This document shows positions 4,669 to 33,477 of a DNA stretch of 35,090 nt, piece after piece. Within the stretch, counting starts at the first letter, position 1. Each line of letters starts with the position of its first letter. A program made the translations under genes and the position numbers. The stretch lies in IMG/VR virus record IMGVR_UViG_2671180963_000003, one strand, 5' to 3'. The notes beneath the pieces are model-generated. The model searched no databases. It saw only the letters and a program-made list of their open reading frames with translations, and was not told the origin of the DNA. Source of the stretch: a virus (taxonomy: Duplodnaviria > Heunggongvirae > Uroviricota > Caudoviricetes).

Positions 4669-5496
4669 ATGAATACTGTTACCGTTATGAATACTGCTAA
4701 AACTGCTTCCGTGTCTCTGGTTGTTGATAACACCAAACCGCTGACCATGTCTTCTCGTCAGATCGCTGAATTTGTTGATAAGCGCCATGATAACGTTGTT
4801 CGCGATATTCGTAAGATGCTGAACGAGTTAGAAAAAGATGTCCTCAAATTTGAGGGCATCTATCTTGACCAATATGGACGCGAGAAAATCGAATATCACT
4901 TAGACGAAGAAATGACTCTGACTCTTGTCACTGGTTACGATGTTAAGCGTCGAATGATCGTTATTCAGGAATGGAAGCGACTGAAAGAAGAAAATGAAAA
5001 ACTGCGTTCTCAGCAAATCAACCCTTACGCAAACATGACTAAGCTCGACTGGATTCGTGAGGCAATGGAATTGGAAGCCGCAAACGAACAACTGATTCAA
5101 GAAAAGAAACAACTGGTTGAATTGCATGTTCGTAAAGCTATCGACACACACAGTCTTAGCCGCTTATTAGGCGAAAAACGAGGCTCTACGACGGTACAAA
5201 TGATTCTGAAAGGTTTATGTGCTGCTGGTGTTCTTGAGCGTCGTCTGGATGCTTCTGGTAAGCCTAAAGGCTATGATCTGCTTCCTCCTGGCTATATGTT
5301 CGCTCGTATGTCGGCACACGGTCAGATCGAGTTCACTGCTGATGCTATCCCGCATCTCGTAAAACTCGGATTGCTTGAAGAAGAAAAGGCCGCAACTTTG
5401 AAATTGCCACAGCCGAACAACTCACGAGCAATCATTAATAACACTGCTTTGCTGATTCGTCAGAATGCTGGCTCTCTGGAAGTCTTCGGACTGTAA
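4669..5496 (+). CDS. Rha-family phage regulatory protein (antirepressor-like)
   Basis: N-terminal motif LTMSSRQIAEFVDKRHDNVVRDIRKM resembles the Rha domain signature as recalled from memory; 275 aa; AAGGGG Shine-Dalgarno. Confidence 0.6.
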   Translation: MNTVTVMNTAKTASVSLVVDNTKPLTMSSRQIAEFVDKRHDNVVRDIRKMLNELEKDVLKFEGIYLDQYGREKIEYHLDEEMTLTLVTGYDVKRRMIVIQEWKRLKEENEKLRSQQINPYANMTKLDWIREAMELEAANEQLIQEKKQLVELHVRKAIDTHSLSRLLGEKRGSTTVQMILKGLCAAGVLERRLDASGKPKGYDLLPPGYMFARMSAHGQIEFTADAIPHLVKLGLLEEEKAATLKLPQPNNSRAIINNTALLIRQNAGSLEVFGL

Positions 5497-10684: not shown

Positions 10685-12688
10685 ATGCTTAAATTTCGCC
10701 GCGAACTTAACGGTTACGGTGGAGTTATTAACGAAGGGCATAACGATCAATACGAATTTGAAATTGCTTTCTCCAGTGAACAGCCGTATCAGCGCCAATT
10801 CTGGGATGAGCAAAATCAAGAAATGGTGGTATTAGATGAAATTCTGGTACATACACCGGAAGCGGTTGATCTGTCTCGTCTGAATAATAACGCTCCGTTG
10901 CTGTTCAATCATAATTTCGATAATCATTTAGGTGTCGTTTGTAACGCTCGAATCGATGCGGATAAAGTAGGCCGTGCGACCGTTAGATTCTCTAAGCATG
11001 GCACTTTGGCTAATGATATTCGTAATAAAGTCATTGAAGGTACGATGGAAAAAATTTCTGTCGGCTATGACATTAAAGAATATCACATCGATTATGCCAA
11101 AGGACAATTGATTGTTACTAAGTTTGTTCCTTTCGAATTAAGTTTTGTTACGGTCCCGGCGGACGATTCGGTCGGTTTAAATCGCTCTCTAAATACTATC
11201 ACAGTTAATTTGGAGGCTAAACGCGATATGACTAAAGAACAAATCGAAGAAATCAAAGAAGAACAAGAATCCGCTCAGGTTGAAGAAACTCCGGTAGAAG
11301 AAAATAAAGAATCGGAAGTTGAAGAAACTCAAGAGCGCCAAGTTGAAGAGAATGAAGAAAATGAAAATCTCGAAGACGGAAAAGACGCTGAACATCCTGA
11401 AAGTGTTGATGATGATAGTTCAACTGTTCGGGAAACAGAAGAAGTAAAAGAAGAACGTGAAGCCGCTCCGGTTGAAGAAGAAAAAATCGAAGAAGTGGCT
11501 GAACGTTCCGAAGAAGACGAATTAGAAATTCGCGAAATTGCACGCGAACTAAATATTGACGACGAAGAATTAAAACGCGCATTGGCAGTTAAAGATATGA
11601 CGCCGGAAGCATTCCGCACTAAGGCACTAAATAATCTCGTCAATGCTCAACGTAATAACGAACAAATTAATAAGGAACAAATCATGGAAAAAACTTTTGA
11701 CCTGAACAACGTAATTCGCTCTCTGGTAGATGGTGAAGCTCTGGGTGCTAACGAAGCCGAGTTTTCTGCAATGGCTGCTACTGCAACTATGCAGCGTGGT
11801 CGTGCTGCTCGCGGTGGCTCTGTATTCGTTCCGACTGCTGCTATGCGTGCTGCTGCTGATGGTAACACCAAAGCTACTCTGACCGCTGTAACCGACGAAA
11901 AACTGCTGAATGATTCCTATGTAGCGATGCTGTTGCCGGAATCCGTTCTGGGTCGTCTTGGTGTGAAAGTCCTGTCTGGTCTGACTTCTCCGACTGCTAT
12001 TCCGAAAATGACCGCTTCCAGCGTTGAATCTTTCGGCTTCGTTGATGAAAACGGTGCTGCACCGGAAGGTAAAGCTGAATTTGCAAACGTGAAAATGGCT
12101 CCGAAAACTTTTGCTGGTGGCAACCCGATCAGCCGTCAGTCTCTGAAAACCGTTCCGGGCATCGCTACCCTGATCACTGATCACATTAACCAAGCTGTTC
12201 GTGTCAAACTGGAACAACTGATTCTGTCTGATAAAGAAAATGCTCGTGGTCCGGCTGGTGTGATTAAGCAACTGGTTGATGCAAGCCGTGTTGAGAAGAA
12301 AGCTGCTTTCTCTTACAAAGACTTCCTGAAAGAAATTGCTAAACTGACCGACGCTGGCGTTCCTGCTCAGGCGATCAAGTTTGCGATGAGCGGTGCAACT
12401 GCTGCTGAACTGGAATCTACCCTGAAAGATAACGGTGTTTCCGGTTATATCATCGAAAACGGTAAACTGGCTGGTTACGACGTAGTTACTTCTGGTGTTA
12501 TTCCGGTAGACCACATCGTTCTGGGTGACTTCTCCGCTATTACCATCGGTGAATGGGGCGGTCTGGAACTGGACATTGACGACACTACCTACCGCGCACA
12601 GTCCGCAATTGTTCCGCGTATCTGGGTAGATCTGGATTATGTAGTTACCCAGCCGGAAGCTCTGAAAGTTCTTCACGTCTCTGAATGA
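10685..12688 (+). CDS. prohead protease - acidic linker - major capsid protein fusion (HK97-like)
   Basis: N-terminal ~170 aa carries LLFNHNFDNHLG and KISVGYD, resembling the prohead protease (S78) His and Ser motifs; residues ~190-300 are an E/K-rich low-complexity linker (scaffold/delta-like); the C-terminal ~350 aa has composition and length expected of an HK97-fold capsid protein. Confidence 0.7.
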   Translation: MLKFRRELNGYGGVINEGHNDQYEFEIAFSSEQPYQRQFWDEQNQEMVVLDEILVHTPEAVDLSRLNNNAPLLFNHNFDNHLGVVCNARIDADKVGRATVRFSKHGTLANDIRNKVIEGTMEKISVGYDIKEYHIDYAKGQLIVTKFVPFELSFVTVPADDSVGLNRSLNTITVNLEAKRDMTKEQIEEIKEEQESAQVEETPVEENKESEVEETQERQVEENEENENLEDGKDAEHPESVDDDSSTVRETEEVKEEREAAPVEEEKIEEVAERSEEDELEIREIARELNIDDEELKRALAVKDMTPEAFRTKALNNLVNAQRNNEQINKEQIMEKTFDLNNVIRSLVDGEALGANEAEFSAMAATATMQRGRAARGGSVFVPTAAMRAAADGNTKATLTAVTDEKLLNDSYVAMLLPESVLGRLGVKVLSGLTSPTAIPKMTASSVESFGFVDENGAAPEGKAEFANVKMAPKTFAGGNPISRQSLKTVPGIATLITDHINQAVRVKLEQLILSDKENARGPAGVIKQLVDASRVEKKAAFSYKDFLKEIAKLTDAGVPAQAIKFAMSGATAAELESTLKDNGVSGYIIENGKLAGYDVVTSGVIPVDHIVLGDFSAITIGEWGGLELDIDDTTYRAQSAIVPRIWVDLDYVVTQPEALKVLHVSE

Positions 12689-12825
12689 ACTAACGTAGAA
12701 CCTTCTGAACCTTCCCCCGATTTGGGGGAAGAAAATCTGATTCCATCTCAGGAAGAAGAAGTTCAAGAGGTTACGGCGAAAGCCACAGTTAAAAAAGAAC
12801 GTAAGACTAAAGCAAAATAATAATT

Positions 12826-12852
12826 AGCCCTGCCTAACGGTGGGGCTTTTTT
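12826..12852 (+). terminator. rho-independent terminator after the capsid gene
   Basis: 9 bp stem AGCCCTGCC/GGTGGGGCT (two G-U pairs), TAAC loop, TTTTTT. Confidence 0.6.
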
Positions 12853-12882
12853 GTATGTAAATACTCCATAAAGGGGGTAACT

Positions 12883-13173
12883 ATGTTCAAATTATCAGAA
12901 TCACAATTATCAAGAATGTTTAAGAGTGCTCCTGTATTTTCGGTGGAAGGTGGTAAATCAATTCGTGCTTATCATGAAATTACTACTACCGACGAACAAG
13001 GGGTAATTACAGAATCAGAATTTCTATTTTGTCGTGAGGGAGACTTAAATCAGGGTGATGTTGTCATTGTAGACGGTGAACGCTTCAAAGTTCAATACGT
13101 TAAGCGCAATGGTGATAATACTTCTGATTGCTTTATTGCTCGTGCAGGGGGTACACATGCTCGCTACCGTTAA
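12883..13173 (+). CDS. head-tail connector/head completion candidate
   Basis: 96 aa ORF, AAGGGGGTAA Shine-Dalgarno, directly downstream of the capsid gene; assignment by position only. Confidence 0.4.
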   Translation: MFKLSESQLSRMFKSAPVFSVEGGKSIRAYHEITTTDEQGVITESEFLFCREGDLNQGDVVIVDGERFKVQYVKRNGDNTSDCFIARAGGTHARYR

Positions 13174-13579
13174 TAATATGCCTAGACTGAAAATCAAACG
13201 CGCCTTGCAGGATATTATCGAACAAGATTTAGGTCTGGCTTTAAACGTAGAACAAACTCAGCAAGGCTTTAGTGATGACGTGGTTTGTTGGATTACTGGA
13301 ATGAATGAGACTTACACTAGGGTCCGTGGTGGTAATGCAATGCAAGCTGAATGCGTTATCGAAATGCAGTTGTATTCTCAGAATCATGAAACCAAAATTC
13401 ATGAGGGTATTTGCCAGATAATCCAGATTCAGCCGGATAACCCACGTTTTAAAGATTTGGGCTTCTCTATTTCAGATATCACTCCAGTAGCCTCTAATAC
13501 CGATTATGACGATGATTCTAGTGATGGGGGTATCGTTGGGACACTTAGCCTTAAATTTTCTTATGTAGCGCGTTTTTAA
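13157..13579 (+). CDS. neck/tail completion candidate
   Basis: Start moved to the ATG at 13157 (AGGGGG Shine-Dalgarno 6 nt upstream), overlapping the previous gene by 17 nt; 140 aa; assignment by position only. Confidence 0.4.
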   Translation: MLATVNNMPRLKIKRALQDIIEQDLGLALNVEQTQQGFSDDVVCWITGMNETYTRVRGGNAMQAECVIEMQLYSQNHETKIHEGICQIIQIQPDNPRFKDLGFSISDITPVASNTDYDDDSSDGGIVGTLSLKFSYVARF

Positions 13580-13588
13580 GGGGTAATA

Positions 13589-14422
13589 ATGAATATTACA
13601 CAAGATAACTTAGACATTTTCACGGGGTCGCATGTTGAAGTCTCCGTGTCTACTATGGTGGATAACCAGCCGGACTTTTTCGATCCTGCATTTAGTCCTA
13701 TCGAGAACATCGCAGCATTCCCTACGATCACCGAATCCACAGAGATCCAGACGTTAGAAGAATATAACCATGATGTTACTGGTAAGTTGGCTGGCTATCG
13801 TAAACTTGAATCAACAACACTCACAGTAAACCGTGTTCTGGATGATGAACATCAAGCAATGTTGATGAAAGCGGTAGAGGATAAAACCCCTTTACGCTTC
13901 CGTATGTTCTATGTTGTGAACTCTGGCTATAGTGCTGCTAACACAGGATACTACGTCATTTTTGATGCATACGTCACATCACACAAAACCCGTGGTAGCG
14001 ATAACAAAGTTACTACCATCGAATTTAAATTAGATCCTGATGGTGGGATTCTCGACCGTGGTATTGCCACCGAAGGCCGGATCTTACGTCAAGGTGATTT
14101 TGGTTTGGGCGCTGGTGTACATCCATTCACAGGTCCGATTGATAGCGAAGCATTAGCCGGAAACCGTTTCGTAACTTATCAGGGATCGAGCGTATCTAAT
14201 CCATTTAGTGCTGATACTTCACTAATTCACGTTCAACCTAATGAAGATGGTGGATGGCAATTAACTTGCACCGCTTCCGGCGCACCACGTTTACGAGTTC
14301 GCACAGTCCAGAAAGACGGTAATTCTGGATGGGTGAAAGTGTATTCCACAGAAGAAAAACCGACACCAGCCGAGATTGAAGCCGTTTCTATCCATGACCG
14401 GATCGACTTCGGGGAATACTGA
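13589..14422 (+). CDS. structural protein of unknown role sharing a motif with the tail fibre
   Basis: 277 aa, AAGGGGTAA Shine-Dalgarno; C-terminal EEKPTPAEIEAVS parallels GDKPTPAEIGAYS in the tail fibre around residue 368. Confidence 0.45.
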   Translation: MNITQDNLDIFTGSHVEVSVSTMVDNQPDFFDPAFSPIENIAAFPTITESTEIQTLEEYNHDVTGKLAGYRKLESTTLTVNRVLDDEHQAMLMKAVEDKTPLRFRMFYVVNSGYSAANTGYYVIFDAYVTSHKTRGSDNKVTTIEFKLDPDGGILDRGIATEGRILRQGDFGLGAGVHPFTGPIDSEALAGNRFVTYQGSSVSNPFSADTSLIHVQPNEDGGWQLTCTASGAPRLRVRTVQKDGNSGWVKVYSTEEKPTPAEIEAVSIHDRIDFGEY

Positions 14423-14495
14423 TTGCTTCTCTAAATAAAACATGACGCGGGAGGTTAACGCCTCCCTTATTCCTGTTTTATAGTGAGGTGATTCG

Positions 14496-17400
14496 ATGCA
14501 GTCGATCCAATTTAAACGAACAAATGTTTCTGGCAAAAAACCAACGCCGGAACAATTACAGGTCGGTGAGGTAGCAATCAACCTTAAAGACCATGTTATT
14601 TTTACCAAAGACCGAGATCATGAAGTAGTTCAAATCTCTGTTTCTCCTGAAACTCACGCGGCACTAGAATCTAAAGTTGATGCTAACAAACAAGAACTGG
14701 ATAGTACAATTGCAGTAAATGACCGCAATATTCACGCTAAAGTAGATGAAATTAAACAAACTACTGATGCAACCATCGCAGCAAATCACGTAGAAATTAA
14801 CAATAAAGTTGATGTAATTAAACGCGAAACCGACGCGACAATCGATGCCAATAAAAATAAAGCTGCTTCCGACCTTGCTGGTGTTAAAGCTGAATTGTCG
14901 GATACTATCAACGCTAATAAAAATGCGGCTGCTGTAGCAACACAGGAACTGGACACCCGCATCAATAAAAAAGTTGATGATATTAAATCCCGTACCGATG
15001 CAACCATCGCAAGCAATGACAAAGCAATCAATGACAAGGTTGATTTGATTAAGGCCGAGACTGATCGGACTATCGCAGCAAATAAAGCCTATGCGGAAAA
15101 TCAGTTAACTGACACCTACAATAACCTTACTGGTGTGATTGCAGCCAATAAGCAAGAGGCAGCGGATAACGTCGCAGCATTAACCCGTGATGTTGAAGCC
15201 AAAAATTCAGCAATTCATAGCAAAGTTGACAATAACAAGTCTTACACCGATTCCGAACTTGCACGTTTAGAAAGCCGTATTGATGCAGCCGATGGATCTA
15301 GTGACGGTAAGTACATCAAAAAACACGTAAACACTTATACTGATGGTTATTTGCTGTCTAAGACCGCAAACTATTTTGATGATCCAGGTGCTCGTAATCT
15401 TGATTACTTTGGTGCATTCCGTACCAATGATCTAGCTGATCATATTGCAATGATCTTGCATGTTCCGCACCCATCCGGTGTTAATCATGCTCGTGGTTTT
15501 GAGTTCACTTATGGGTCTAATCCACATGCTACGGTAAGAACATACGGCTATGATGAATTGGGTCATTTGGCATATTCTCACCGCATGTATCATGAAGGTG
15601 ATAAACCTACTCCTGCCGAAATTGGCGCATATTCGAAAGCAGAAATTGACCGACTGTTCCAGAAGACGCTTAATTTTGGTATCGAGGGTGGTTGGTTTAA
15701 ACTAGGCACTTTGACAATGCCACAACAACACGGTCGCACCGCTAAGATTCGTTTGGTTGGTGGTAACGGTTATAACGTCGGACAGAATGGACAAGCCAAT
15801 GTTATTGAACTGGTGATCCGTTGCGGCAACAATAGCCCGAAAGGTGTTGTATTCAATGCTTATTATAGCATTTGGTATTACGAACAATATTTTTGCGCAA
15901 TTCCTACCGATGGCGATAATTACGATCTTTACGCTTACTACGGTGCACATACAGGATTTGTTTTAGCAGAATATCAAGTTTCGTCCGGTGGTGTTTCTTT
16001 AAACCTGTTGGATACTCCTGAATATCTGGGTGGTGAAAAACCTGTTGCAGATGAAATTTTTGATGCTCTTAACATTTCATCATTCAATAACTTTAGCAAC
16101 CGTGGAACGTTAAATTTTGGTGGAAACCATCAAGGCCAATATGACATTGAGCATTTGAACGAACAACAAACAAATGCTAAGAAAAAGTTGCGTCGCTTCC
16201 GTAGTTCCGCACCCGCTACTATCTGGCATGAAACTGTAGATGATCAGAATTATCGTCTTGCTACTGGATACGATGATGTAAACCAACAATTATTGCTGTC
16301 GGCTGCATCCGGTTTGCATATTCGTAGAATGACCATTGATGGCGGTTTAGGTGGAAACTCAGCAATTGATTTTCGTCGTGGTCCAAATGAATCATGTCAT
16401 TTAAACTTCTTTGATTATCGCACTGGTACAGATGTTCGTAATGGCTGGTTTGGCTTCGGTGATGGTCAGACCAAAGATTTTATTTGGTGGAACGACAACG
16501 GTCAAAACTCTATAAACCTGATTGAAGACGGTGAATTACATATTACTGGCGGTAGAGGCCAGAAAATTGTAATGAATAGCGAAGTGGCATTATCTGAAAA
16601 TGCTCGTTTGGCTGTCAAAGGTGGTAACTATGGTTTAATCCTTCGTAATGATGGTTCTAGCTTCCATATTCTTACTACCGATTTAAAAGATTCCTTTGGG
16701 ACGTGGAACACTCGTAGACCATTTAGTTATGATTTCGCCGAAGGTGGATTAGATCTAGGTGGCACAGCTACCGCACGCTGTTTACATCTGGGAATTGATG
16801 GTAGCACCCGCATCGAAGATAATATGGTGTTTAGATCAGGGTCTCGTCAGTCAATGGACTATATTGAATTAATCCATTGGGGTAACAGTAATACAGGACG
16901 CAATAACGTTTTGAGTATGCGAGATTCCAAAGGTTTCTTGGCTGAATTTGAACGCGTGGGGGGTACTAACGGCGTTAAAACCAGATTCTTTGGCGAAACA
17001 TTCACTGATGGTACATTATACCTAAATCAGATGAATAATAGCTCTGAACGATTCTCTATTAATAATTGGGGAAATTCAGAAGTTGGTCGCGCGGCAGTAA
17101 TGGAAGTTGGCGATTCCAAAGGTTATCACTTCTATACTGAACGTAGGACAGATGACACCGTTTTATTTGATGTATCTGGTGCTTTGACCGTGCATGGACC
17201 TAACGGAATAACCGTCAAAAACTCAACTGGTGCACGCCATATCTGGTTTAGAGATGATAGCGATACGGAAAAGGCTGTTATCTGGGCTACAGATGAGGGT
17301 ATTTTACATATTCGCAATAACCACGGTGGACAATTTACACATCACTTCCAGGGCGCGATGATTAAACTGGAAGGGCGTGTTCCTTATGCCGCAGATCAAG

Positions 17401-18020
17401 GACTTATCCGTGGTGAGGTTTCTGGTGGTGCATATGTTGCATGGAGAGACCGACCTGCTGGTTTGTTGGTTGACTGTCAACAAAGCGTTGATAGTGCTCA
17501 TGCTATTTGGAAAGCGGTTGATTGGGGGCGTAACTACATCGCTGCTATGGACGTTCATTGTCCCGGTGATAGTAATAATACTGCGGCAGCGGTTCTTCAT
17601 GTTCAGGGTGCTGATTATCAATTCCATGCAAGTGGAGAATTTCATGCCACTGGTAACGGAAACTTTAACGATGTTTATATTCGTTCCGATCGTCGTCTGA
17701 AAATTAATGTTGAAGATTACGAAGAAAATGCGGTGGATAAGGTAAATAAACTCAAAGTTAAAACCTACGATAAAGTTAAATCTCTTAATGACCGAGAAGT
17801 TATAGGTCATGAGATTGGTATTATCGCACAGGATTTACAAGAGGTATTACCGGAAGCTGTTAAAACCGCAAAAATTGGTGGTTTTGATAACCCAGAAGAA
17901 ATTTTAACAATTTCAAACTCCGCAGTGAACGCGCTTTTAATTAAAGCGGTCCAAGAAATGAGCGAAGAAAATAAACTTCTTCGTGAACGTCTTGCTGCAA
18001 TTGAAGCTAAATTAGGGTAA
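14496..18020 (+). CDS. tail fibre with C-terminal intramolecular chaperone (S74-like) domain
   Basis: 1174 aa. N-terminus MQSIQFKRTNVSGKKPTPEQLQVGEVAINLKDHVIFTKD resembles the T4 gp37-type fibre N-terminus from memory; repeated KVDxIKxxTDATIxAN units; WGNSEVGRAAVMEVGDSKGYHFYTERR resembles a T-even fibre domain; C-terminal DRRLKINVEDYEE...IAQDLQEVLPEAV...coiled coil resembles the self-cleaving chaperone of endosialidase/T5 pb1-type fibres. Confidence 0.8.
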   Translation: MQSIQFKRTNVSGKKPTPEQLQVGEVAINLKDHVIFTKDRDHEVVQISVSPETHAALESKVDANKQELDSTIAVNDRNIHAKVDEIKQTTDATIAANHVEINNKVDVIKRETDATIDANKNKAASDLAGVKAELSDTINANKNAAAVATQELDTRINKKVDDIKSRTDATIASNDKAINDKVDLIKAETDRTIAANKAYAENQLTDTYNNLTGVIAANKQEAADNVAALTRDVEAKNSAIHSKVDNNKSYTDSELARLESRIDAADGSSDGKYIKKHVNTYTDGYLLSKTANYFDDPGARNLDYFGAFRTNDLADHIAMILHVPHPSGVNHARGFEFTYGSNPHATVRTYGYDELGHLAYSHRMYHEGDKPTPAEIGAYSKAEIDRLFQKTLNFGIEGGWFKLGTLTMPQQHGRTAKIRLVGGNGYNVGQNGQANVIELVIRCGNNSPKGVVFNAYYSIWYYEQYFCAIPTDGDNYDLYAYYGAHTGFVLAEYQVSSGGVSLNLLDTPEYLGGEKPVADEIFDALNISSFNNFSNRGTLNFGGNHQGQYDIEHLNEQQTNAKKKLRRFRSSAPATIWHETVDDQNYRLATGYDDVNQQLLLSAASGLHIRRMTIDGGLGGNSAIDFRRGPNESCHLNFFDYRTGTDVRNGWFGFGDGQTKDFIWWNDNGQNSINLIEDGELHITGGRGQKIVMNSEVALSENARLAVKGGNYGLILRNDGSSFHILTTDLKDSFGTWNTRRPFSYDFAEGGLDLGGTATARCLHLGIDGSTRIEDNMVFRSGSRQSMDYIELIHWGNSNTGRNNVLSMRDSKGFLAEFERVGGTNGVKTRFFGETFTDGTLYLNQMNNSSERFSINNWGNSEVGRAAVMEVGDSKGYHFYTERRTDDTVLFDVSGALTVHGPNGITVKNSTGARHIWFRDDSDTEKAVIWATDEGILHIRNNHGGQFTHHFQGAMIKLEGRVPYAADQGLIRGEVSGGAYVAWRDRPAGLLVDCQQSVDSAHAIWKAVDWGRNYIAAMDVHCPGDSNNTAAAVLHVQGADYQFHASGEFHATGNGNFNDVYIRSDRRLKINVEDYEENAVDKVNKLKVKTYDKVKSLNDREVIGHEIGIIAQDLQEVLPEAVKTAKIGGFDNPEEILTISNSAVNALLIKAVQEMSEENKLLRERLAAIEAKLG
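14676..15080 (+). repeat. imperfect tandem ~66-69 bp repeats within the fibre gene
   Basis: At least four consecutive units encoding (H/N/K/D)KVD(E/V/D/L)IK(Q/R/S/A)(T/E)TD(A/R)TI(A/D)(A/S)N; a coding repeat, not a separate element. Confidence 0.6.
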
Positions 18021-18058
18021 TTGGAAAGCGGGGAGAAATCTCCGCTAAGGATTCTTAT

Positions 18059-18355
18059 ATGGGATATTGGGTAAGTAGTGAAATTAATACTAAAATCGAT
18101 GCTTTAAAATGGCATGTATTTGATATTCCTAACGGCTATGGTACTGCTCGTGCTGGTGTCGCTGTAATGCGTCATAATGCTGGTGGTGGGTGGTCTGATG
18201 CACATATTAACGTAGATGGTTTGACCGTTGCTCGTCGTCGTGGTGGGACCAATTGGGGATCTACTATAAATTCGTTTGTTCCTGCTGGCTGCACCGTCTC
18301 CTTTGGTTTAGGGGGTGAAGGTGGTGTTGAATATTTTAAATTCATGGAGTTTTAA
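18059..18355 (+). CDS. Gly-rich small protein, paralog 1 of 3 (FDIPNGW family), function unknown
   Basis: 98 aa; AAGGA Shine-Dalgarno; shares FDIPNG(Y/W), a G-rich core and a C-terminal TVSF..G....YFKF with the next two ORFs. Confidence 0.5.
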   Translation: MGYWVSSEINTKIDALKWHVFDIPNGYGTARAGVAVMRHNAGGGWSDAHINVDGLTVARRRGGTNWGSTINSFVPAGCTVSFGLGGEGGVEYFKFMEF

Positions 18356-18357
18356 TT

Positions 18358-18663
18358 ATGGCTGGATGGATAAATCAAAGAATGTCAAACGCTATTAGTA
18401 TTTGGGCTAATGGTGGATATTTTGATATCCCCAACGGCTGGGTTACTGATTCATGCGGAATTGTTTTTGCTCATATGGAAGCCATTAACGGTGCTGGTGA
18501 TCTTGATTCTGAATTGGCTGTAAATGGATTGATTGAATCAGGTCATCATGCTGGTGATGCTGGGAGTTGGGGCGCTAGTTCTTTAGTTGGCGCTGGTGCT
18601 ACCGTTAGCTTTACATTGGGTAAAGGTAGTTTGCATTATTTTAAATTCAGGAGAATGCACTAA
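18358..18663 (+). CDS. Gly-rich small protein, paralog 2 of 3 (FDIPNGW family)
   Basis: 101 aa; GGAG Shine-Dalgarno; starts 3 nt after paralog 1 ends. Confidence 0.5.
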   Translation: MAGWINQRMSNAISIWANGGYFDIPNGWVTDSCGIVFAHMEAINGAGDLDSELAVNGLIESGHHAGDAGSWGASSLVGAGATVSFTLGKGSLHYFKFRRMH

Positions 18664-18965
18664 TGGCATTTTGGGTAGATGGCGCTTTGGGGAATAGGGC
18701 GGGTAAAGCAAATCAAGGATGGTTTGATATTCCTAACGGTTGGACAGCCGACGCTTTCGGGACTATTTCATTCTGTGCTCATTCTTCCGGTGGTGGCGGT
18801 GGTGACTCTGAATTGCTTATTCATGGTTTGTGTGTTTCTGGAAGCCATAAGGGTCATGATTGGGGACAGATTCATTCTTGTATTGCACCGCAAGGGGCGG
18901 TAATTACCGTTAGCACAAATAGGGGGATCGCTCATCTTCGTTATAGACGTTTGAGCAACCGCTAA
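18663..18965 (+). CDS. Gly-rich small protein, paralog 3 of 3 (FDIPNGW family)
   Basis: 100 aa; AGGAGA Shine-Dalgarno; start overlaps the stop of paralog 2 by 1 nt. Confidence 0.5.
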   Translation: MAFWVDGALGNRAGKANQGWFDIPNGWTADAFGTISFCAHSSGGGGGDSELLIHGLCVSGSHKGHDWGQIHSCIAPQGAVITVSTNRGIAHLRYRRLSNR

Positions 18966-19019
18966 ATAAATAGAATTACGGGTATGTGCCCTATTGTTTA
19001 AAATAGAAGGAAAAGAATA

Positions 19020-19490
19020 ATGACTACTAAATTTGATATTTTTTCTGGTGGCCTCGTTGGTCTGTTTCTGCATGAAGAAGTAACTAACACCGATCTTGAC
19101 AGTGAAAGCTATCTGGAAATTCCAGAATGTGCGGCTTTCCCGGAAACTGGTGTAGAACGTTCTACTGTCGATGTTCCTAACTTCGGTGGTCCGTATAACC
19201 GTAAGCTGGTTGGTCGTATGTCTGTACCGGATATCGAACTTTCGATCAACTACATGCCGGGTAACGAAGTACACGAAAAACTGATTAAAGCAACCGAAGA
19301 CGGTAAGCGCGTACAGATTAAAATTGCTTACTACATCGACGCTACGAAAAAATCTGGTGTACATATCGCTTATAACGGCTTCCTGTCTAAAACTACCATG
19401 ACTGGTGGTGAGGATGCTGTAGTAGGCCGTACCTTCACCTTTGTAGTAGATGGTGCTCCGGTTAAACAAGCTGTTTTCCAGAAACTCTAA
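19020..19490 (+). CDS. major tail tube protein
   Basis: 156 aa; immediately upstream of the chaperone pair and tape measure gene; followed by a strong terminator; AGAAGG Shine-Dalgarno. Confidence 0.65.
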   Translation: MTTKFDIFSGGLVGLFLHEEVTNTDLDSESYLEIPECAAFPETGVERSTVDVPNFGGPYNRKLVGRMSVPDIELSINYMPGNEVHEKLIKATEDGKRVQIKIAYYIDATKKSGVHIAYNGFLSKTTMTGGEDAVVGRTFTFVVDGAPVKQAVFQKL

Positions 19491-19499
19491 TATTATCTA

Positions 19500-19523
19500 G
19501 CCATCCTTCGGGGTGGCTTTTTT
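19500..19523 (+). terminator. rho-independent terminator after the tail tube gene
   Basis: GCCATCC-ttcg-GGGTGGC followed by TTTTTT. Confidence 0.65.
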
Positions 19524-19572
19524 GTTTCCAATTCTAAATAAACATATCTAATTAACTTAAGAGGAAACAATA

Positions 19573-19881
19573 ATGAATATTAATGAAATGTTAGCCGCAC
19601 TTTCTCCGAAACGCGAATCTCTGACCATCGGTGGATTTACGTTCTATGCTCGCCCTATGTCGGTGCAAGAATATAATGAACATGTTTTCAATACTGATAA
19701 AAAAGACCGAGATGAACGTTCTATTTTTCGTTGTATTGAAGATGAAGACGGTAAGCCAGTATTTGAATCTATGGAACAAGTTAAGGCATTGTATACTAGC
19801 GTCCGTAGCGAATTAATCGGCTTAGTTGCTCAAGTGTCATTGATGCAAGATCCGGCAGTAATTGAAAACGAGGTAAAGTAA
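19573..19881 (+). CDS. tail assembly chaperone (gpG-like)
   Basis: 102 aa ORF between the tail tube and tape measure genes; GAGGAAA Shine-Dalgarno. Confidence 0.55.
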   Translation: MNINEMLAALSPKRESLTIGGFTFYARPMSVQEYNEHVFNTDKKDRDERSIFRCIEDEDGKPVFESMEQVKALYTSVRSELIGLVAQVSLMQDPAVIENEVK

Positions 19882-19910
19882 ACCCGCTTCTGTGTTTCTA
19901 TTTCCGGCAA

Positions 19911-20252
19911 ATGATGAGATCGGGGCTTAGTAAAGATGAAATGGATAATATGCCAATCACTCTGTTTTGGAAATTATATATTTTCGATACATACTTAGAA
20001 CCACAAAGCCCTGCGTTTCATGATTTACAGAATGCGATGTTGCAATATTCCATGTATATGACGTCGCAAGGAATGACACGCGAAACTGCACGCAAACTCA
20101 AGCCTAGCCAATTCCAATTAATTAGAGAAGAAAAACTCTTTAAAACTAAAGAAGAACTGGAAGAACTTGCACGCAAGAAAGAAGAAGAACGTAAAGCGGC
20201 AATGCTGAACATGTTTGATCCATCTTTGCTTGAGAAACTCAGAAGCGGTTAA
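19911..20252 (+). CDS. tail assembly chaperone T-like segment (possibly expressed as a G-T fusion by frameshift)
   Basis: ORF in the -1 frame relative to the gpG-like gene, open from 19866; no Shine-Dalgarno before its first ATG; positional analogy with lambda G/G-T. Confidence 0.45.
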   Translation: MMRSGLSKDEMDNMPITLFWKLYIFDTYLEPQSPAFHDLQNAMLQYSMYMTSQGMTRETARKLKPSQFQLIREEKLFKTKEELEELARKKEEERKAAMLNMFDPSLLEKLRSG

Positions 20253-20263
20253 AGGGGTAATTT

Positions 20264-22693
20264 ATGACAAAACATATAGTAACAATAGAAGGGGATAATA
20301 AAGGGCTAAAGAGAAGTACCAATGAAGCCGCCGACCTTCTCGATAGTTTGTCTGAAAAGGCAAGTAATATTGATTTTGGTGGTGGCTTATCTGGTCTGAC
20401 TGGATCTCTTCGTGGGATCGCTGGCTCTGCTGGTTTAGCTGCTGGTGGTATCGGCTTAGTTGCGACCGCAGTGGTTGCAGCCGCTAAAGCTGGCGCGGAA
20501 TACGTTAAACAATATTCAGAAGTATCTAAGGCGACCGGACTCTCGATTGAATCCCTTCAAAGACTGGAAAAGGAATTTTCTGGTACTGGCCTAACAGTTG
20601 AAAAATTCGGTGATATCAACAAAGACACCTTAGATAAGATGGGTGATGCATGGGCTAACGGTGGTGGTATTGCTGATGACTTAGAATCGGTTGGCCTTAA
20701 GTTAGAAAACTATGCTCACTTCATGACTGATCCGCAAGGTGGTATGAAAGCGGCGATCCAAGTGTTCTATGACATGAAGAAAGCCGGAAAATCAATGGCT
20801 GAAATCAAGTTCATGATGGAATCTTTAGCCAGTGATTCAAGCCATATGACCAGCCAGCTTGAGAAATATAATACTGCTCAAGAGGCGATGATCGCTATTC
20901 AGAATCAATCTGTTAACGTCACCGAAGAAAACGCTAAAAAATATGATAAATTTTCTCAAAATATCAATAAGCTGGAAAATAACCTGAAAGGTGTCGGTAT
21001 GACCATTTCTGGTCCGCTGGTTGATAGTTTAAACTGGTTATTTGACTGGTTTAATATTGATTGGGAAAAGAGTTCTCTATTCAGGGCATTAGATCGACTG
21101 AATAAAGAAGGCAAGACCGCAACTGGCGGTATTCTTAACGCCAACCATAAAGACGCTCAAAAAATTATTGACAAGTACAATAAAGAAAAGCGTTGGAATA
21201 ATCTGGCAGATTGGGAAAAGGCCGCGATCCGTGGTGCTGGTGTCGATCCTCGTACTGCTGGCTTTGATGTTGAAGGATTTAAGAAACGTTTTGGTGATTC
21301 TTATAAGAAAAATGGCTCTCTGATTGTTGTCGATAACGGGGAACATCTAACCCGCAAGGCAGATCCTAACCGTGATTTGACTATACCAAATAAACCAGTA
21401 AGACCAGAATCATTGGGTAAGTCTGGTAATGAGAAGAAAGCCGAAGAAGAAGCACGCAAGAAAGCGGAAGAGGCAGCTAAAAAGGCTAAGGAAGCCGCAG
21501 AAAAAGCACAGAAAGCACGCGAGGATGCAATCAAGCGACTGAATGCACTTGATGTTAAATTGCAAGGGCAAGTTGCAGCGTCTATCACTTCTCAAAATAG
21601 CCAGTTGCAAAACAGCTTAAAAGATGTGAACGACGCGTTAGCTCTGGGCTTAATCTCTCAGGAAGACGCAGCCGCGAAACGCCAGGCGCTAATCGATCAG
21701 AATACTGAAAACGTTTATAAAATGATGTTGGGTGCTGATCCGATTGATGCTCTGAATGCTTTAACACAATTGCAACAAATCAGGGACAACGAGCTAGAAA
21801 GCCATAAACGGTTACTTGATGGTAAAGCTATCTCCTACGAAGAATATATGCGTCGTGTGAACGATACCGAGCAAAACTATTCTCAGATTGAAAATTCTTT
21901 ACAGGGAATGGATGGTTATAAAACCAATCAATTAACTAGTAGTTATGATTATCAAGACTCAAATAATCCGTTTGCTAAATTTAATGCAATCGATAAAGAG
22001 AAATCGGATGCTGAACAAGATTATAAGACCGATAAACTCAAGATTGATGGGATCACCGATCCGGCTAAACGGATGGAAGCATTAGAAAAACTCAATGAAA
22101 ACCATCAAAAACGAATGGCTGCAATTGAGAAGAAATATGCTGATGCTCGCCAGTCAATAGCCGATGATATGTACGGCGGTTTTGCTGCTGCAATGACTCT
22201 CTTCGGGCAGGAAAACACTAAAGCAATGCAGATGGCTTTCAATGCTCATAAAGCATTCTCCATTGGACAAGCGACGGTGAACATGTGGACGGCTGCTACC
22301 GATGCATGGAACGATCCGACCAACGTCACCACAGGACAAAAGATCGCTGCTGCTGCATTGGCTGTTTCTCAGAACATGGGGAGCATTGCAAACATCAAGT
22401 CTACTAGCGTTAGCGGTATGGCTCATGATGGTATCGATAACATCCCGCGTGAGGGTACATGGTTGCTTGATAAGGGTGAACGAGTAGTTGATCAGCGTAC
22501 TAACGGTGATTTGAAAGACTTCCTTGCTGCTCAAAAATCAGGTGGTGGTAACTCTCAGCCGATTGAAGTTAATGCGCCTTTGAACATTAACGGCAACGTT
22601 AATAGCTCAGACAAAATGGTCATGGATGCTATCAAACGTCACGCTAAGTTAGTTGCTCAGGCGGTAGAAGACGCACAGCGTCGTAAGATGTAA
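20264..22693 (+). CDS. tape measure protein
   Basis: 809 aa; N-terminal Gly/Ala-rich hydrophobic segment, long K/E/A-rich helical region, position after the chaperone pair; AAAGGGGTAA Shine-Dalgarno. Confidence 0.8.
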   Translation: MTKHIVTIEGDNKGLKRSTNEAADLLDSLSEKASNIDFGGGLSGLTGSLRGIAGSAGLAAGGIGLVATAVVAAAKAGAEYVKQYSEVSKATGLSIESLQRLEKEFSGTGLTVEKFGDINKDTLDKMGDAWANGGGIADDLESVGLKLENYAHFMTDPQGGMKAAIQVFYDMKKAGKSMAEIKFMMESLASDSSHMTSQLEKYNTAQEAMIAIQNQSVNVTEENAKKYDKFSQNINKLENNLKGVGMTISGPLVDSLNWLFDWFNIDWEKSSLFRALDRLNKEGKTATGGILNANHKDAQKIIDKYNKEKRWNNLADWEKAAIRGAGVDPRTAGFDVEGFKKRFGDSYKKNGSLIVVDNGEHLTRKADPNRDLTIPNKPVRPESLGKSGNEKKAEEEARKKAEEAAKKAKEAAEKAQKAREDAIKRLNALDVKLQGQVAASITSQNSQLQNSLKDVNDALALGLISQEDAAAKRQALIDQNTENVYKMMLGADPIDALNALTQLQQIRDNELESHKRLLDGKAISYEEYMRRVNDTEQNYSQIENSLQGMDGYKTNQLTSSYDYQDSNNPFAKFNAIDKEKSDAEQDYKTDKLKIDGITDPAKRMEALEKLNENHQKRMAAIEKKYADARQSIADDMYGGFAAAMTLFGQENTKAMQMAFNAHKAFSIGQATVNMWTAATDAWNDPTNVTTGQKIAAAALAVSQNMGSIANIKSTSVSGMAHDGIDNIPREGTWLLDKGERVVDQRTNGDLKDFLAAQKSGGGNSQPIEVNAPLNINGNVNSSDKMVMDAIKRHAKLVAQAVEDAQRRKM

Positions 22694-31748: not shown

Positions 31749-33428
31749 TTAAATTCCAAATTCCTGTAATGGACCTGGTATTTCCTCTTCTGGTTTCCAG
31801 TTCTTATCTGTCAGCATGTCTAAACATGGATGCAGAACAAGCCCGTTGCTCTCCAGAATCTGCCTATCATTGATAGTTTTCAAATCAATGAATATCCGGC
31901 CTTTCCTCGTTCCTCTTGAATTTTCTATTACAACTCTCTGGGTCTTTCCATCGATGTATTCCAGTACAAACAAGTTTTTGTTTCTGTCAATCCTGCTACA
32001 CCCGATCCGCTTTAGAGCTTGCTTAATCTTAAACCGGACCTTTAGTCGTTCCTCGTTATAAACATCTTCTAAATCAAATTCTGCGAGCTTCTCCCAGCCT
32101 TGAGAGTCCACAGAATACATTTCCTCTTCTGCCATCTTGATCTGATTGTAGAGTGTTTCACGCTCGCTATTGAGGGTAGTAATCTGATCGGCTAGCTCCT
32201 TCGTTGCTCCTGTCATAGCAGAAAGGGCAATCAGGTTATCAATCTTGCGTGATATTTCATCAACCTGTACTTTCAAAGCCGGAACCGGATTAGCCTTGTC
32301 CTCAGCAATCCAGATTTTATCAGCCAGCAATTGCAATACAGCTTTCTCTAATTGATCACCTCGAAAACTCCAGTTTGGATGCTCGCAATCAAGTCTACGT
32401 GAACGGGTCGCATCACATGTATAACGATACTGGTCAGAACGTTTGTTCGTTCCCTTCACTTTAACCATAGCGCAACCGCAATGATCACATTTCAATAGGC
32501 CAATACCACTAAGCAGGGGGATCGGTTTAACTTCTTCCTTCTCTCCAAAGTTCCATGCTCTAGCACCAATATTTTTCTTAAGGTGATAGAACGTAGCATC
32601 ATCAATAACACGAGGGTAATAATCCTTTAACTCATAGTTAACGCCATCTACAGAGACTTCCTTGATACCAATCAAAGCGCGGGTATGGAACAACCTTTCA
32701 ACCATTGCCCGTGACCATTTTGAATGCTTCTTGTTGCTTACTGCTGGTGGCGGTGTATATGTCTCGTTAAGGTGATCCAGTATTTCGGCGGTTGAACGTC
32801 CATTCTTCCGTAATTCCACAATCTCCTGAACAACAGGGAAGTACACCGGATGAGGCAACACATAACCGGAAGTGGTATCAGTCCACCACATATTCTTTCC
32901 AACTTCCTCGATAGCCACTGCCGGATTTTGTGGATTTTCTTGATGAGCTTTAATCTTAATCAATGCGCTTGAGTTAGTACGATTGCGCTTAGTCTGGCTT
33001 TCCTCATTACCACGGATGAATAAAAGGATGGAGAACATCAGGTCCATCGGGTTAGCGGTAACAGTATCCAGCGAGTAGATCTTGTTATCCATGCCAGTAA
33101 CAATGGTTATTCCCCTACGGATGATTGAAAGGAATAACTCCTGCGCACTGACAATATCGGCACGGGATAAGCGGTCCAAGTTTTCAATGAATAGCCAGCT
33201 ACCAACAGGAACGGATCTACCAATTGCATCAAGGAAACGAGATAGCGCCCCTGTTTTAGAGTTAGCACCCTTAAACGCAGATACACCCAGATCCTGATAA
33301 TCATTTACCAGTTCAAGGTCATACTTTGTCGCAACCTCTCTCGCCATCCTGATTTGTCGTTCATAACTCGAACCATCATTCTGACGCATAGACGAGAAGC
33401 GAATATACGAATACAGTTTAGTTTTCAT
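31749..33428 (-). CDS. large serine recombinase (integrase-like)
   Basis: N-terminal YSYIRFSSMRQ...ERQ and DRLSR resemble the serine recombinase catalytic motifs; Cys cluster CDHCGCAM...C..C; C-terminal coiled coil; 559 aa from ATG 33428 (the track began at an upstream TTG). Confidence 0.8.
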   Translation of the reverse strand: MKTKLYSYIRFSSMRQNDGSSYERQIRMAREVATKYDLELVNDYQDLGVSAFKGANSKTGALSRFLDAIGRSVPVGSWLFIENLDRLSRADIVSAQELFLSIIRRGITIVTGMDNKIYSLDTVTANPMDLMFSILLFIRGNEESQTKRNRTNSSALIKIKAHQENPQNPAVAIEEVGKNMWWTDTTSGYVLPHPVYFPVVQEIVELRKNGRSTAEILDHLNETYTPPPAVSNKKHSKWSRAMVERLFHTRALIGIKEVSVDGVNYELKDYYPRVIDDATFYHLKKNIGARAWNFGEKEEVKPIPLLSGIGLLKCDHCGCAMVKVKGTNKRSDQYRYTCDATRSRRLDCEHPNWSFRGDQLEKAVLQLLADKIWIAEDKANPVPALKVQVDEISRKIDNLIALSAMTGATKELADQITTLNSERETLYNQIKMAEEEMYSVDSQGWEKLAEFDLEDVYNEERLKVRFKIKQALKRIGCSRIDRNKNLFVLEYIDGKTQRVVIENSRGTRKGRIFIDLKTINDRQILESNGLVLHPCLDMLTDKNWKPEEEIPGPLQEFGI

Positions 33429-33440
33429 ACCATTTCCAAA

Positions 33441-33477
33441 CAAAAACGCCCCTACCGCGTATTATAACGATAGGGGC
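33441..33477 (-). terminator. rho-independent terminator (minus strand) upstream of the recombinase
   Basis: GCCCCTA(c)CG ... CG(a)TAGGGGC hairpin with a U-run on the minus strand; the loop contains TTATAAT. Confidence 0.5.

Follow-up and report, generated by a model that had tools for sequence, protein, structure and literature searches.

A fixed set of three small paralogous genes downstream of S74-type tail fibres, a candidate fibre-tip module of phages and prophages

T-even-type tail fibres are known to end in one of two ways, either with a self-sufficient gp37 tip, as in T4, or with a gp37 that carries a monomeric adhesin, gp38, as in T2, S16 and RB49, gp37 being the distal long tail fibre of T-even-type phages. 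Genes located directly 3' of fibre genes very often encode chaperones, and the gp38 slot of T4 encodes one. On many phage and collagen-like fibres, jelly rolls of the C1q/TNF type form trimeric distal knobs. In the phages that use gp38 as adhesin, gp37 sheds its chaperone domain and one gp38 then attaches as the receptor-binding protein (PMC9569957). The gp38 of S16 is reported to attach via three short helices, and gp24 of Pam3 combines a helical docking element with a TNF-like domain and Gly-rich recognition loops (PMC9608196). Pam3 also has gp25, whose beta-sandwich domain embraces the tip with a 3:3 stoichiometry (PMC9608196), and transient caps have been proposed in Alteromonas phages (PMC10579305). 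Finally, the heterotrimeric receptor-binding fibre of a virophage, which is made from three consecutive paralogous genes, provides a precedent for a fibre of three different chains (PMC12724248).

Here we analyzed a stretch of 35,090 nucleotides (the window) that is an E. coli prophage and carries three small paralogous genes, S1, S2 and S3, downstream of a side tail fibre gene (Table 1). Strains 14EC017, PK8568 and ETEC1703 carry its triplet region with 100% identity. We propose, with a probability of roughly 45%, that S1-S3 are three non-interchangeable subunits of one fibre-tip module, which would sit as a heterotrimer on the processed fibre tip.

Table 1. Features of the fibre and triplet region (positions in the window).
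Feature	Position	Strand	Size	Remarks
Side tail fibre	14496..18020	+	1174 aa	Pfam Gp34_trimer (E 1.3e-15), Peptidase_S74 (E 4.7e-15)
C-terminal intramolecular chaperone, S74 type	17688..18020	+	fibre residues 1065-1174	Pfam PF13884 at 1064-1123
Conserved intercistronic hairpin	18027..18046	+		AGCGGGGA-GAAA-TCTCCGCT; after the fibre stop codon and ahead of the S1 ribosome-binding site (18047-18051)
S1	18059..18355	+	98 aa	predicted short N-terminal helix and C1q/TNF-like jelly roll
S2	18358..18663	+	101 aa	predicted architecture as S1; start 2 nt past the S1 stop codon
S3	18663..18965	+	100 aa	same family, best-conserved paralog; start overlaps the S2 stop codon (TAATG)
Tail tube protein, canonical	19020..19490		156 aa	phrog_158 (E 3.7e-20)

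Organization of the fibre and triplet genes

The initial annotation had described three back-to-back ORFs, each with its own Shine-Dalgarno sequence. Their coordinates and sizes were verified, and a ribosome-binding site was found upstream of each gene: AAGGA for S1, atGGAGttt in the 3' end of S1 for S2 and AGGAGaatg in the 3' end of S2 for S3. The S2 site is thus contained in the codons for the C-terminal ...FMEF of S1, and the S3 site in those for the C-terminal ...RRM of S2 (AGGAGAATG). Comparison of the junctions in 12 loci indicated that, at nearly every junction, 1-4 nt separate neighbouring S genes or are shared by them (TAATG or ATGA), and that in most loci, all the enteric ones among them, the codons for the conserved C-terminal residues also serve as ribosome-binding site of the following gene (MEF = atGGAGttt; RRM = AGGAGaatg). 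By this arrangement, the three S genes are translationally coupled behind the fibre gene.

The same 12 loci were compared for the hairpin that precedes S1, which has a GAAA tetraloop and is not followed by a T-run. The E. coli/Krischvirus loci and most of the Salmonella-type ones (L001, L003, L012, L023, L024, L027) share its sequence, L026 has a related one, and most of the distant loci (L013, L016, L018) have an analogous hairpin whose position is kept though its sequence differs. The annotation of phage G2248 calls it a putative terminator. It might act as a partial terminator, or stabilise the mRNA, and so set how strongly the triplet is expressed relative to the fibre. A scan for promoters and terminators inside the triplet returned nothing convincing, with counts near shuffle expectation, and there is no GC anomaly over the cassette, the sole signal being a GC skew from glycine codons.

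Gene calls vary between loci. S3 is uncalled but intact in L024-L026. The Salmonella-type S2 (112-129 aa; L012 7944-8001, L023 6001-6390) has an N-terminal extension and a conserved A/P-R-I-P motif; in L012 an in-frame ATG is found 2 nt after the S1 stop codon, which suggests that the called start is too far downstream.

A tblastn search with each S protein against 215 kb (the window plus phage G37-3) retrieved the other two at E 1e-5 to 6e-12, and the paralogy claimed from the sequence is therefore real and well beyond chance. Mutual identity is 25-39% in a whole-length alignment and 22-44% by blastp over ~95 aa. W4, FDIPNG, G33, G-L, W-G and several more glycines are invariant across the three proteins, each of which starts with a conserved M-x-x-W-hydrophobic motif at the N-terminal helix. 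The shared motifs listed in the initial annotation held for FDIPNG(W/Y) and the Gly-rich loops; the TVSF...YFKF end occurs in S1 and S2, and S3 has VITVS...LRYRR instead. The family had not been recognised, in agreement with our finding of zero family matches for S1-S3 in the Pfam, PHROG, NCBIfam and PADLOC libraries. No signal peptides, lipoboxes or transmembrane segments were found in the three sequences. Purifying selection acts on each of the three genes (dN/dS 0.04-0.30 across 23 comparisons of orthologs), and entropy profiles indicate that variability in the family is diffuse, without hypervariable blocks.

The fibre gene upstream encodes a mosaic protein. Its first ~290 aa are confined to this prophage family; the part encoded from position ~15359 on is gp37-like, positions 15359-17975 having 77-92% nucleotide identity to Krischvirus and Tequatrovirus gp37 by Megablast. 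This range of identity to gp37 regions of T-even-type phages extends over the distal three quarters of the fibre gene together with the triplet. The N-terminal part contains coiled-coil repeats and weakly matches the Apolipoprotein Pfam model. From the sequence comparison, the mosaic boundary near 15359 reflects a recent exchange between a temperate siphovirus and virulent myoviruses. That the fibre already has its own C-terminal chaperone, as first proposed, is supported by the Peptidase_S74 match and by a cleavage motif. Autocleavage is predicted after ...GNGNFNDVYIRS and before DRRLK, and the corresponding motif, (V/I)xxRS before the cut and DxR(L/V)K after it, was present in 23/23 fibres examined.

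On the other side of the triplet the presence of a tail tube gene was likewise confirmed (phrog_158), and this gene is followed by genes for tail assembly chaperones and then for the tape measure protein. Upstream of the fibre, a 277-aa protein (13589-14422) matches the major tail protein phrog_158 (E 1.1e-8) over the first half of its length and carries an additional domain at the C-terminus; the fibre and triplet cassette consequently sits between two tail-tube-like genes (13589-14422 and 19020-19490). The location of the side-fibre gene before the tube gene and beside an extended tube paralog suggests a specialised fibre-anchoring ring. The 102-aa tail assembly chaperone encoded at 19573-19881 matches Phage_TAC_13, and its ortholog in L005 (8265-8573) is named 'cytochrome' by RefSeq (WP_089584117.1); because the window ortholog matches Phage_TAC_13, this name, found in several genomes, looks misannotated. 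Elsewhere in the window, positions 10685-12688 encode a major capsid protein fused to a prohead protease (667 aa), relatives of which match Peptidase_S78 and Phage_capsid, and the integrase is a large serine recombinase of 564 aa (31752-33443, minus strand; phrog_95). In several related E. coli prophages, found as relatives of positions 12800-20300, IS421, IS3, ISVsa5, IS903B or a GIY-YIG nuclease gene is inserted in the fibre region, a sign that this region is often disrupted or a target of homing.

Distribution and copy number of the triplet

A profile search of 1.84 billion representative proteins identified ~15 true clusters, all of 97-129 aa. Four additional matches of 979-2715 aa were considered as fusions and rejected as repeat-driven artefacts, so the search provides no Rosetta-stone protein, and a fused fibre-S version was found nowhere among the representative proteins. 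In 50,697 phage records the family occurs four times, always in a T4-like Krischvirus (G37-3, G2248, UPWr_E1 and KFS-EC), and no cultured phage beyond these four isolates was found even when distant family members were used as queries. It is carried by 24 of 5,426 complete E. coli genomes (~0.4%), where 22/22 full-length matches are annotated as three ORFs. Searching IMG/VR with an S3 alignment added nine near-identical loci that are close relatives of the window prophage. Altogether the carriers are sipho-type prophages of E. coli and Salmonella, Krischvirus myophages, one T7-like contig and other metagenomic contigs. On the T7-like contig a fibre with a T7-tail N-terminal domain and an S74 end is followed by the triplet and then by a gp17.5-type holin.

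The initial annotation asked whether copy number varies among related phages, and it does not. In 23/23 undamaged loci S1, S2 and S3 are found in this fixed order, directly after a large fibre gene that ends in an S74-type chaperone, and none of the loci examined has one, two or four intact copies. Identity between orthologs (S1 54-76%, S2 51-76%, S3 61-90%) exceeds that between paralogs (22-44%). In the tree each locus contributes a single member to a clean S1 clade, and S2 and S3 are clean among the enteric loci, with poorer resolution in the most distant contigs. The one-to-one orthologs predate the splits between the E. coli, Salmonella and metagenome lineages. Among seven non-redundant enteric loci, the number of conserved columns is 44 for S1, 36 for S2 and 53 for S3; nine are common to all three proteins, and 21 are conserved with different residues. 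Such a pattern is consistent with three non-redundant subunits that are synthesised in a coupled, equimolar manner, and does not fit a recently diversifying array.

These observations bear on the possibility that each paralog makes its own homotrimeric knob, in which case the S proteins would be alternative adhesins competing for the tips and one phage could have up to three specificities. C1q/TNF-like domains commonly homotrimerise, a divergence to 22-44% identity would allow different specificities, and each gene has its own ribosome-binding site. However, such adhesins would be expected to be gained, lost and shuffled, and we always find three genes in a fixed order with one-to-one orthology across very distant loci. 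The tight translational coupling suggests equimolar production, and the conservation of S3 (61-90%) is unlike that of a host-range determinant. We consider this possibility unlikely, and the 'tandem diversification' into alternative adhesins that had been suggested at first does not agree with the fixed number and order, the old one-to-one orthology and the purifying selection.

Exchange with gp38 and linkage to the fibre end

The position of the triplet, directly after a gp37-type fibre with a self-cleaving chaperone, is that of gp38. In the Krischvirus phages G37-3, G2248 and UPWr_E1 it lies between gp37 and a 79-aa ORF that is followed by holin t, and the equivalent slot holds the ~260-aa adhesin gp38 in Krischvirus Skers and in Tequatrovirus ECML-134 and JE01. 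No gp38 was found within the 98.6% of the G37-3 genome that was covered, nor in the window. Over the 170 aa that precede the cleavage site, the window fibre shares 93% identity with the tip of the gp38-carrying JE01. Triplet-type and gp38-type fibres part only within the chaperone domain, over its final ~20 residues; comparison of the two types of ends indicated that the last ~16 aa (NKLLRERLAAIEAKLG) are specific to fibres preceding a triplet of the E. coli/Krischvirus type. The 79-aa ORF (L001 8426-8665, L003 5660-5899, L011 6554-6793), located between gp38 or the triplet and holin t, encodes a hydrophobic N-terminus and an acidic tail. It is kept in all Krischvirus loci examined (72 aa in KFS-EC) and may relate to lysis.

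Two recombination scars show that gp38 and the triplet have replaced each other. In prophage TO6 and in ETEC4085, gp38 is followed by a 70-aa ORF in which 9 residues from the start of the Krischvirus 79-aa ORF are fused to the 60 C-terminal residues of S3. The lone 'copy' of KFS-EC consists of S1 residues 1-89 and an internal S3 segment (DSELLLHGFCVSGSHKG) with a premature end. The chimeric ORFs (L006 7604-7816 in E. coli TO6; L002 7581-7904 in KFS-EC) are labelled as ordinary hypothetical proteins in RefSeq/GenBank. The triplet travels with the fibre 3' end between genomes of the myo-, sipho- and podovirus types.

The S proteins have been compared to gp38 in terms of sequence as well. In a profile-profile comparison of the S-family alignment with an alignment of four gp38 proteins, hhalign gave a probability of 0.4% over 9 aligned columns, and homology, including to the N-terminal domain by which gp38 attaches to gp37, was rejected. 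A polyglycine-II sandwich with hypervariable segments, as in gp38, was rejected too, since AlphaFold2 gives 7-8-stranded jelly rolls and there are no hypervariable blocks. The link to the fibre and the functional analogy with gp38 drawn in the initial annotation are supported by the slot, the co-travel with the fibre 3' end and the reciprocal replacement; homology to gp38 and a gp38-like fold are not supported. To sum up the likeness, gp38 of the T2/T6/S16/RB49 type (PDB 6F45; PGAP 'receptor-recognizing protein') shares with the triplet the slot after an S74-ending gp37-type fibre and, in Krischvirus, before holin t, the same or nearly the same gp37 tip, a Gly-rich composition and recombinational exchange. 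In contrast, gp38 is one ~260-aa monomer with a beta-helix and a polyglycine-II sandwich, whereas the triplet consists of three ~100-aa jelly rolls without hypervariable segments.

We also considered a rule by which T2-type tips always come with gp38 or the triplet and knob-type tips come without. In the initial sample every T2-type tip was accompanied by gp38 or the triplet, and EC416-type knob tips were followed by nothing or by a decayed set. The rule was weakened by L029 and L034, which have an intact triplet and an EC416-type knob tip, and in the IMG/VR loci near-identical S alleles (98-100%) are found behind JE01-type, G37-3-type and EC416-type tips. Within the sample, where numbers are small, no T2-type tip lacks both gp38 and the triplet, and the sole damaged sets, the KFS-EC deletion and the S2 frameshift of L028, are both behind knob-type tips. 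The latter is a one-base insertion at ~4900-4910 that breaks S2 behind an EC416-type knob tip; either a sequencing error or incipient decay of the triplet could explain it. What is invariably linked to the triplet is the S74 chaperone with its conserved post-cleavage end. This linkage could mean docking at that end, or mere adjacency with crossovers in the conserved chaperone-coding DNA.

The mosaic nature of the region raises the question of whether the triplet is non-structural cargo, a 'moron' for anti-defence, superinfection exclusion or receptor masking that rides a recombination hot spot at the fibre 3' end. Small unannotated proteins in an intensely mosaic region would be compatible with this, as would the survival of KFS-EC with a broken set. 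Against it, the proteins have no signal peptides, lipoboxes or transmembrane segments, PADLOC returned no match, and in each of three virion types the genes lie within late structural operons to which they are coupled. Furthermore, the triplet is exchanged reciprocally with a structural adhesin, its predicted fold is that of a fibre knob and the number three is that of the fibre symmetry. We regard cargo, which has no specific point in its favour, as very improbable; the suggestion of a small anti-defence family, in particular, finds no support in the empty PADLOC search or in the late-operon location coupled to the fibre gene.

Predicted fold and proposed role

AlphaFold2 produced confident models for S1 (pLDDT 87.3) and S2 (pLDDT 85.9), with a pTM of 0.73. 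Both begin with a low-confidence helix within the N-terminal ~20 residues, followed by a compact beta-sandwich of 7-8 strands (pLDDT >90). The modelled jelly roll of ~80 residues superposes on gC1q/THD domains, as expected for a member of that structural superfamily, and the structural matches of both models include many TNF ligands, adiponectin, cerebellin and BclA. Other small jelly rolls scored similarly, namely a pectate-lyase CBM, GOLD and CBM51 domains and the C-terminal domain of a subtilisin. Among predicted viral structures, Foldseek matched tail fibre proteins, C1q-domain proteins and collagen-repeat proteins, so the predicted fold is of the kind that forms trimeric distal fibre knobs. 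By sequence, the PDB returned only spurious 'Pizza' repeat matches, and in Pfam, where C1q (PF00386) and TNF (PF00229) would be the families expected, S1 and S2 had no match to any family at E<=1 and S3 only one at chance level. The structure prediction provided the beta-sandwich that had been asked about, in the form of a C1q/TNF-like jelly roll. Members of the C1q/TNF superfamily (the A/B/C chains of the C1q head, collagen VIII/X NC1, BclA, TNF ligands and the fibre knobs of phages and giant viruses) have 120-150 residues as compared to ~80 in the S proteins. In addition, C1q-like knobs are the C-terminal domain of a fibre polypeptide, whereas the S proteins are free-standing and lack a Pfam C1q/TNF match.

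A fixed set of three, a knob-like predicted fold and the gp38 slot together make it probable that the triplet is an undescribed three-subunit fibre-tip module. From the fixed number, the one-to-one orthology, the paralog-specific conservation and the coupled translation we infer a 1:1:1 heterotrimeric cap. In the proposed mechanism the fibre would trimerise with the aid of its own S74 chaperone, which would cleave itself off after ...NDVYIRS. S1, S2 and S3 would be made in equal amounts and assemble, one copy each, into a pseudo-threefold heterotrimer resembling the A/B/C chains of the C1q head. Three N-terminal helices would anchor the heterotrimer to the distal fibre end that the cleavage has exposed, the place otherwise taken by gp38, and its Gly-rich loops would be the outermost, receptor-facing surface, the triplet acting in place of gp38.

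Two described systems come close to this arrangement. The simplified tail fibre gp24 of Pam3 (PMC9608196), set side by side with the S proteins by description, also has an N-terminal alpha-helical docking element, a TNF-like beta-sandwich and glycine-rich receptor-facing loops. However, gp24 is a single homotrimeric protein with a large glycine-rich domain of 12 motifs that docks to the baseplate, whereas the S proteins are three paralogs with short Gly loops encoded beside a long fibre. The tail proteins of the virophage DSLV2 and of Synechococcus phages that are reported to form a heterotrimeric receptor-binding structure (PMC12724248) are likewise encoded by three adjacent paralogous genes kept as a set; they are gp37-like and form the fibre itself, whereas the S proteins are predicted small jelly rolls proposed to cap a homotrimeric fibre.

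The triplet could instead encode assembly factors or transient caps, which would bind the fibre tip or the S74 chaperone while the fibre folds, or protect the tip up to release, and would be absent from the virion or irrelevant to receptor choice. Genes directly 3' of fibre genes, the T4 gp38 slot included, often encode chaperones, and T4 gp38, Tfa proteins, Pam3 gp25 and the 'cap' chaperones of Alteromonas phages behave in this way. The triplet is tied to the S74 end and not to one tip type, and hypervariable segments are absent from the S proteins. Further points in this direction are the precedent of the beta-sandwich of Pam3 gp25 around the tip (PMC9608196) and the transient caps proposed in Alteromonas phages (PMC10579305). 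As a group, the 3'-encoded chaperones (T4 gp38, the Tfa proteins of lambda, P2 and Mu, Pam3 gp25 and the Alteromonas caps) resemble the S proteins in being encoded directly downstream of the fibre gene and in moving with its distal part (PMC10579305). Nevertheless, the fibre has an intramolecular chaperone of its own, and searches of Pfam, PHROG and NCBIfam revealed no similarity to the Tfa, gp38-chaperone or gp57A families. The predicted fold matches distal knob domains and not known chaperones, and the domain order is the reverse of that in gp25. Moreover, a symmetric chaperone needs no three distinct subunits, and the T2-type tips of G37-3 and of the window would be left without an adhesin. 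We therefore judge a role in assembly to be rather unlikely and retain the fibre-tip module as the preferred reading.

In its most specific form, which we put forward as tentative, the module would be an obligate 1:1:1 C1q-like heterotrimer that caps a homotrimeric, S74-processed fibre, a portable asymmetric receptor-binding knob with genes separate from that of the fibre, interchangeable with the monomeric gp38 on one gp37 tip, that has moved between myo-, sipho- and podoviruses. The literature on Krischvirus and gp38, on C1q-/TNF-like fibre knobs, on S74 fibres with small downstream genes and on the four carrier phages does not describe the triplet. Rare and found across morphotypes, the module thus varies the theme of the fibre-tip adhesin in a way not described before.

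Phage host range is decided by receptor-binding modules, and it is these that phage engineering and sequence-based receptor prediction mainly address. The triplet occurs in Krischvirus isolates of the therapeutic type and across three tail morphologies, and is unannotated in every library. G37-3, G2248 and UPWr_E1 have no identifiable adhesin and, consequently, gp38-based receptor-prediction models will fail on them. Because cultured Krischvirus phages carry the triplet, the model is directly testable there. For T-even-type fibre tips the triplet would represent a third solution. If the model is true, no heterotrimeric adhesin cap would have been described on a homotrimeric phage fibre before, and the C1q head would have a counterpart in bacterial viruses. 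Such a heterotrimer would show how a threefold fibre can present an asymmetric binding surface, and its small size (3 x 100 aa) would make it a convenient cassette to exchange when host range is engineered.
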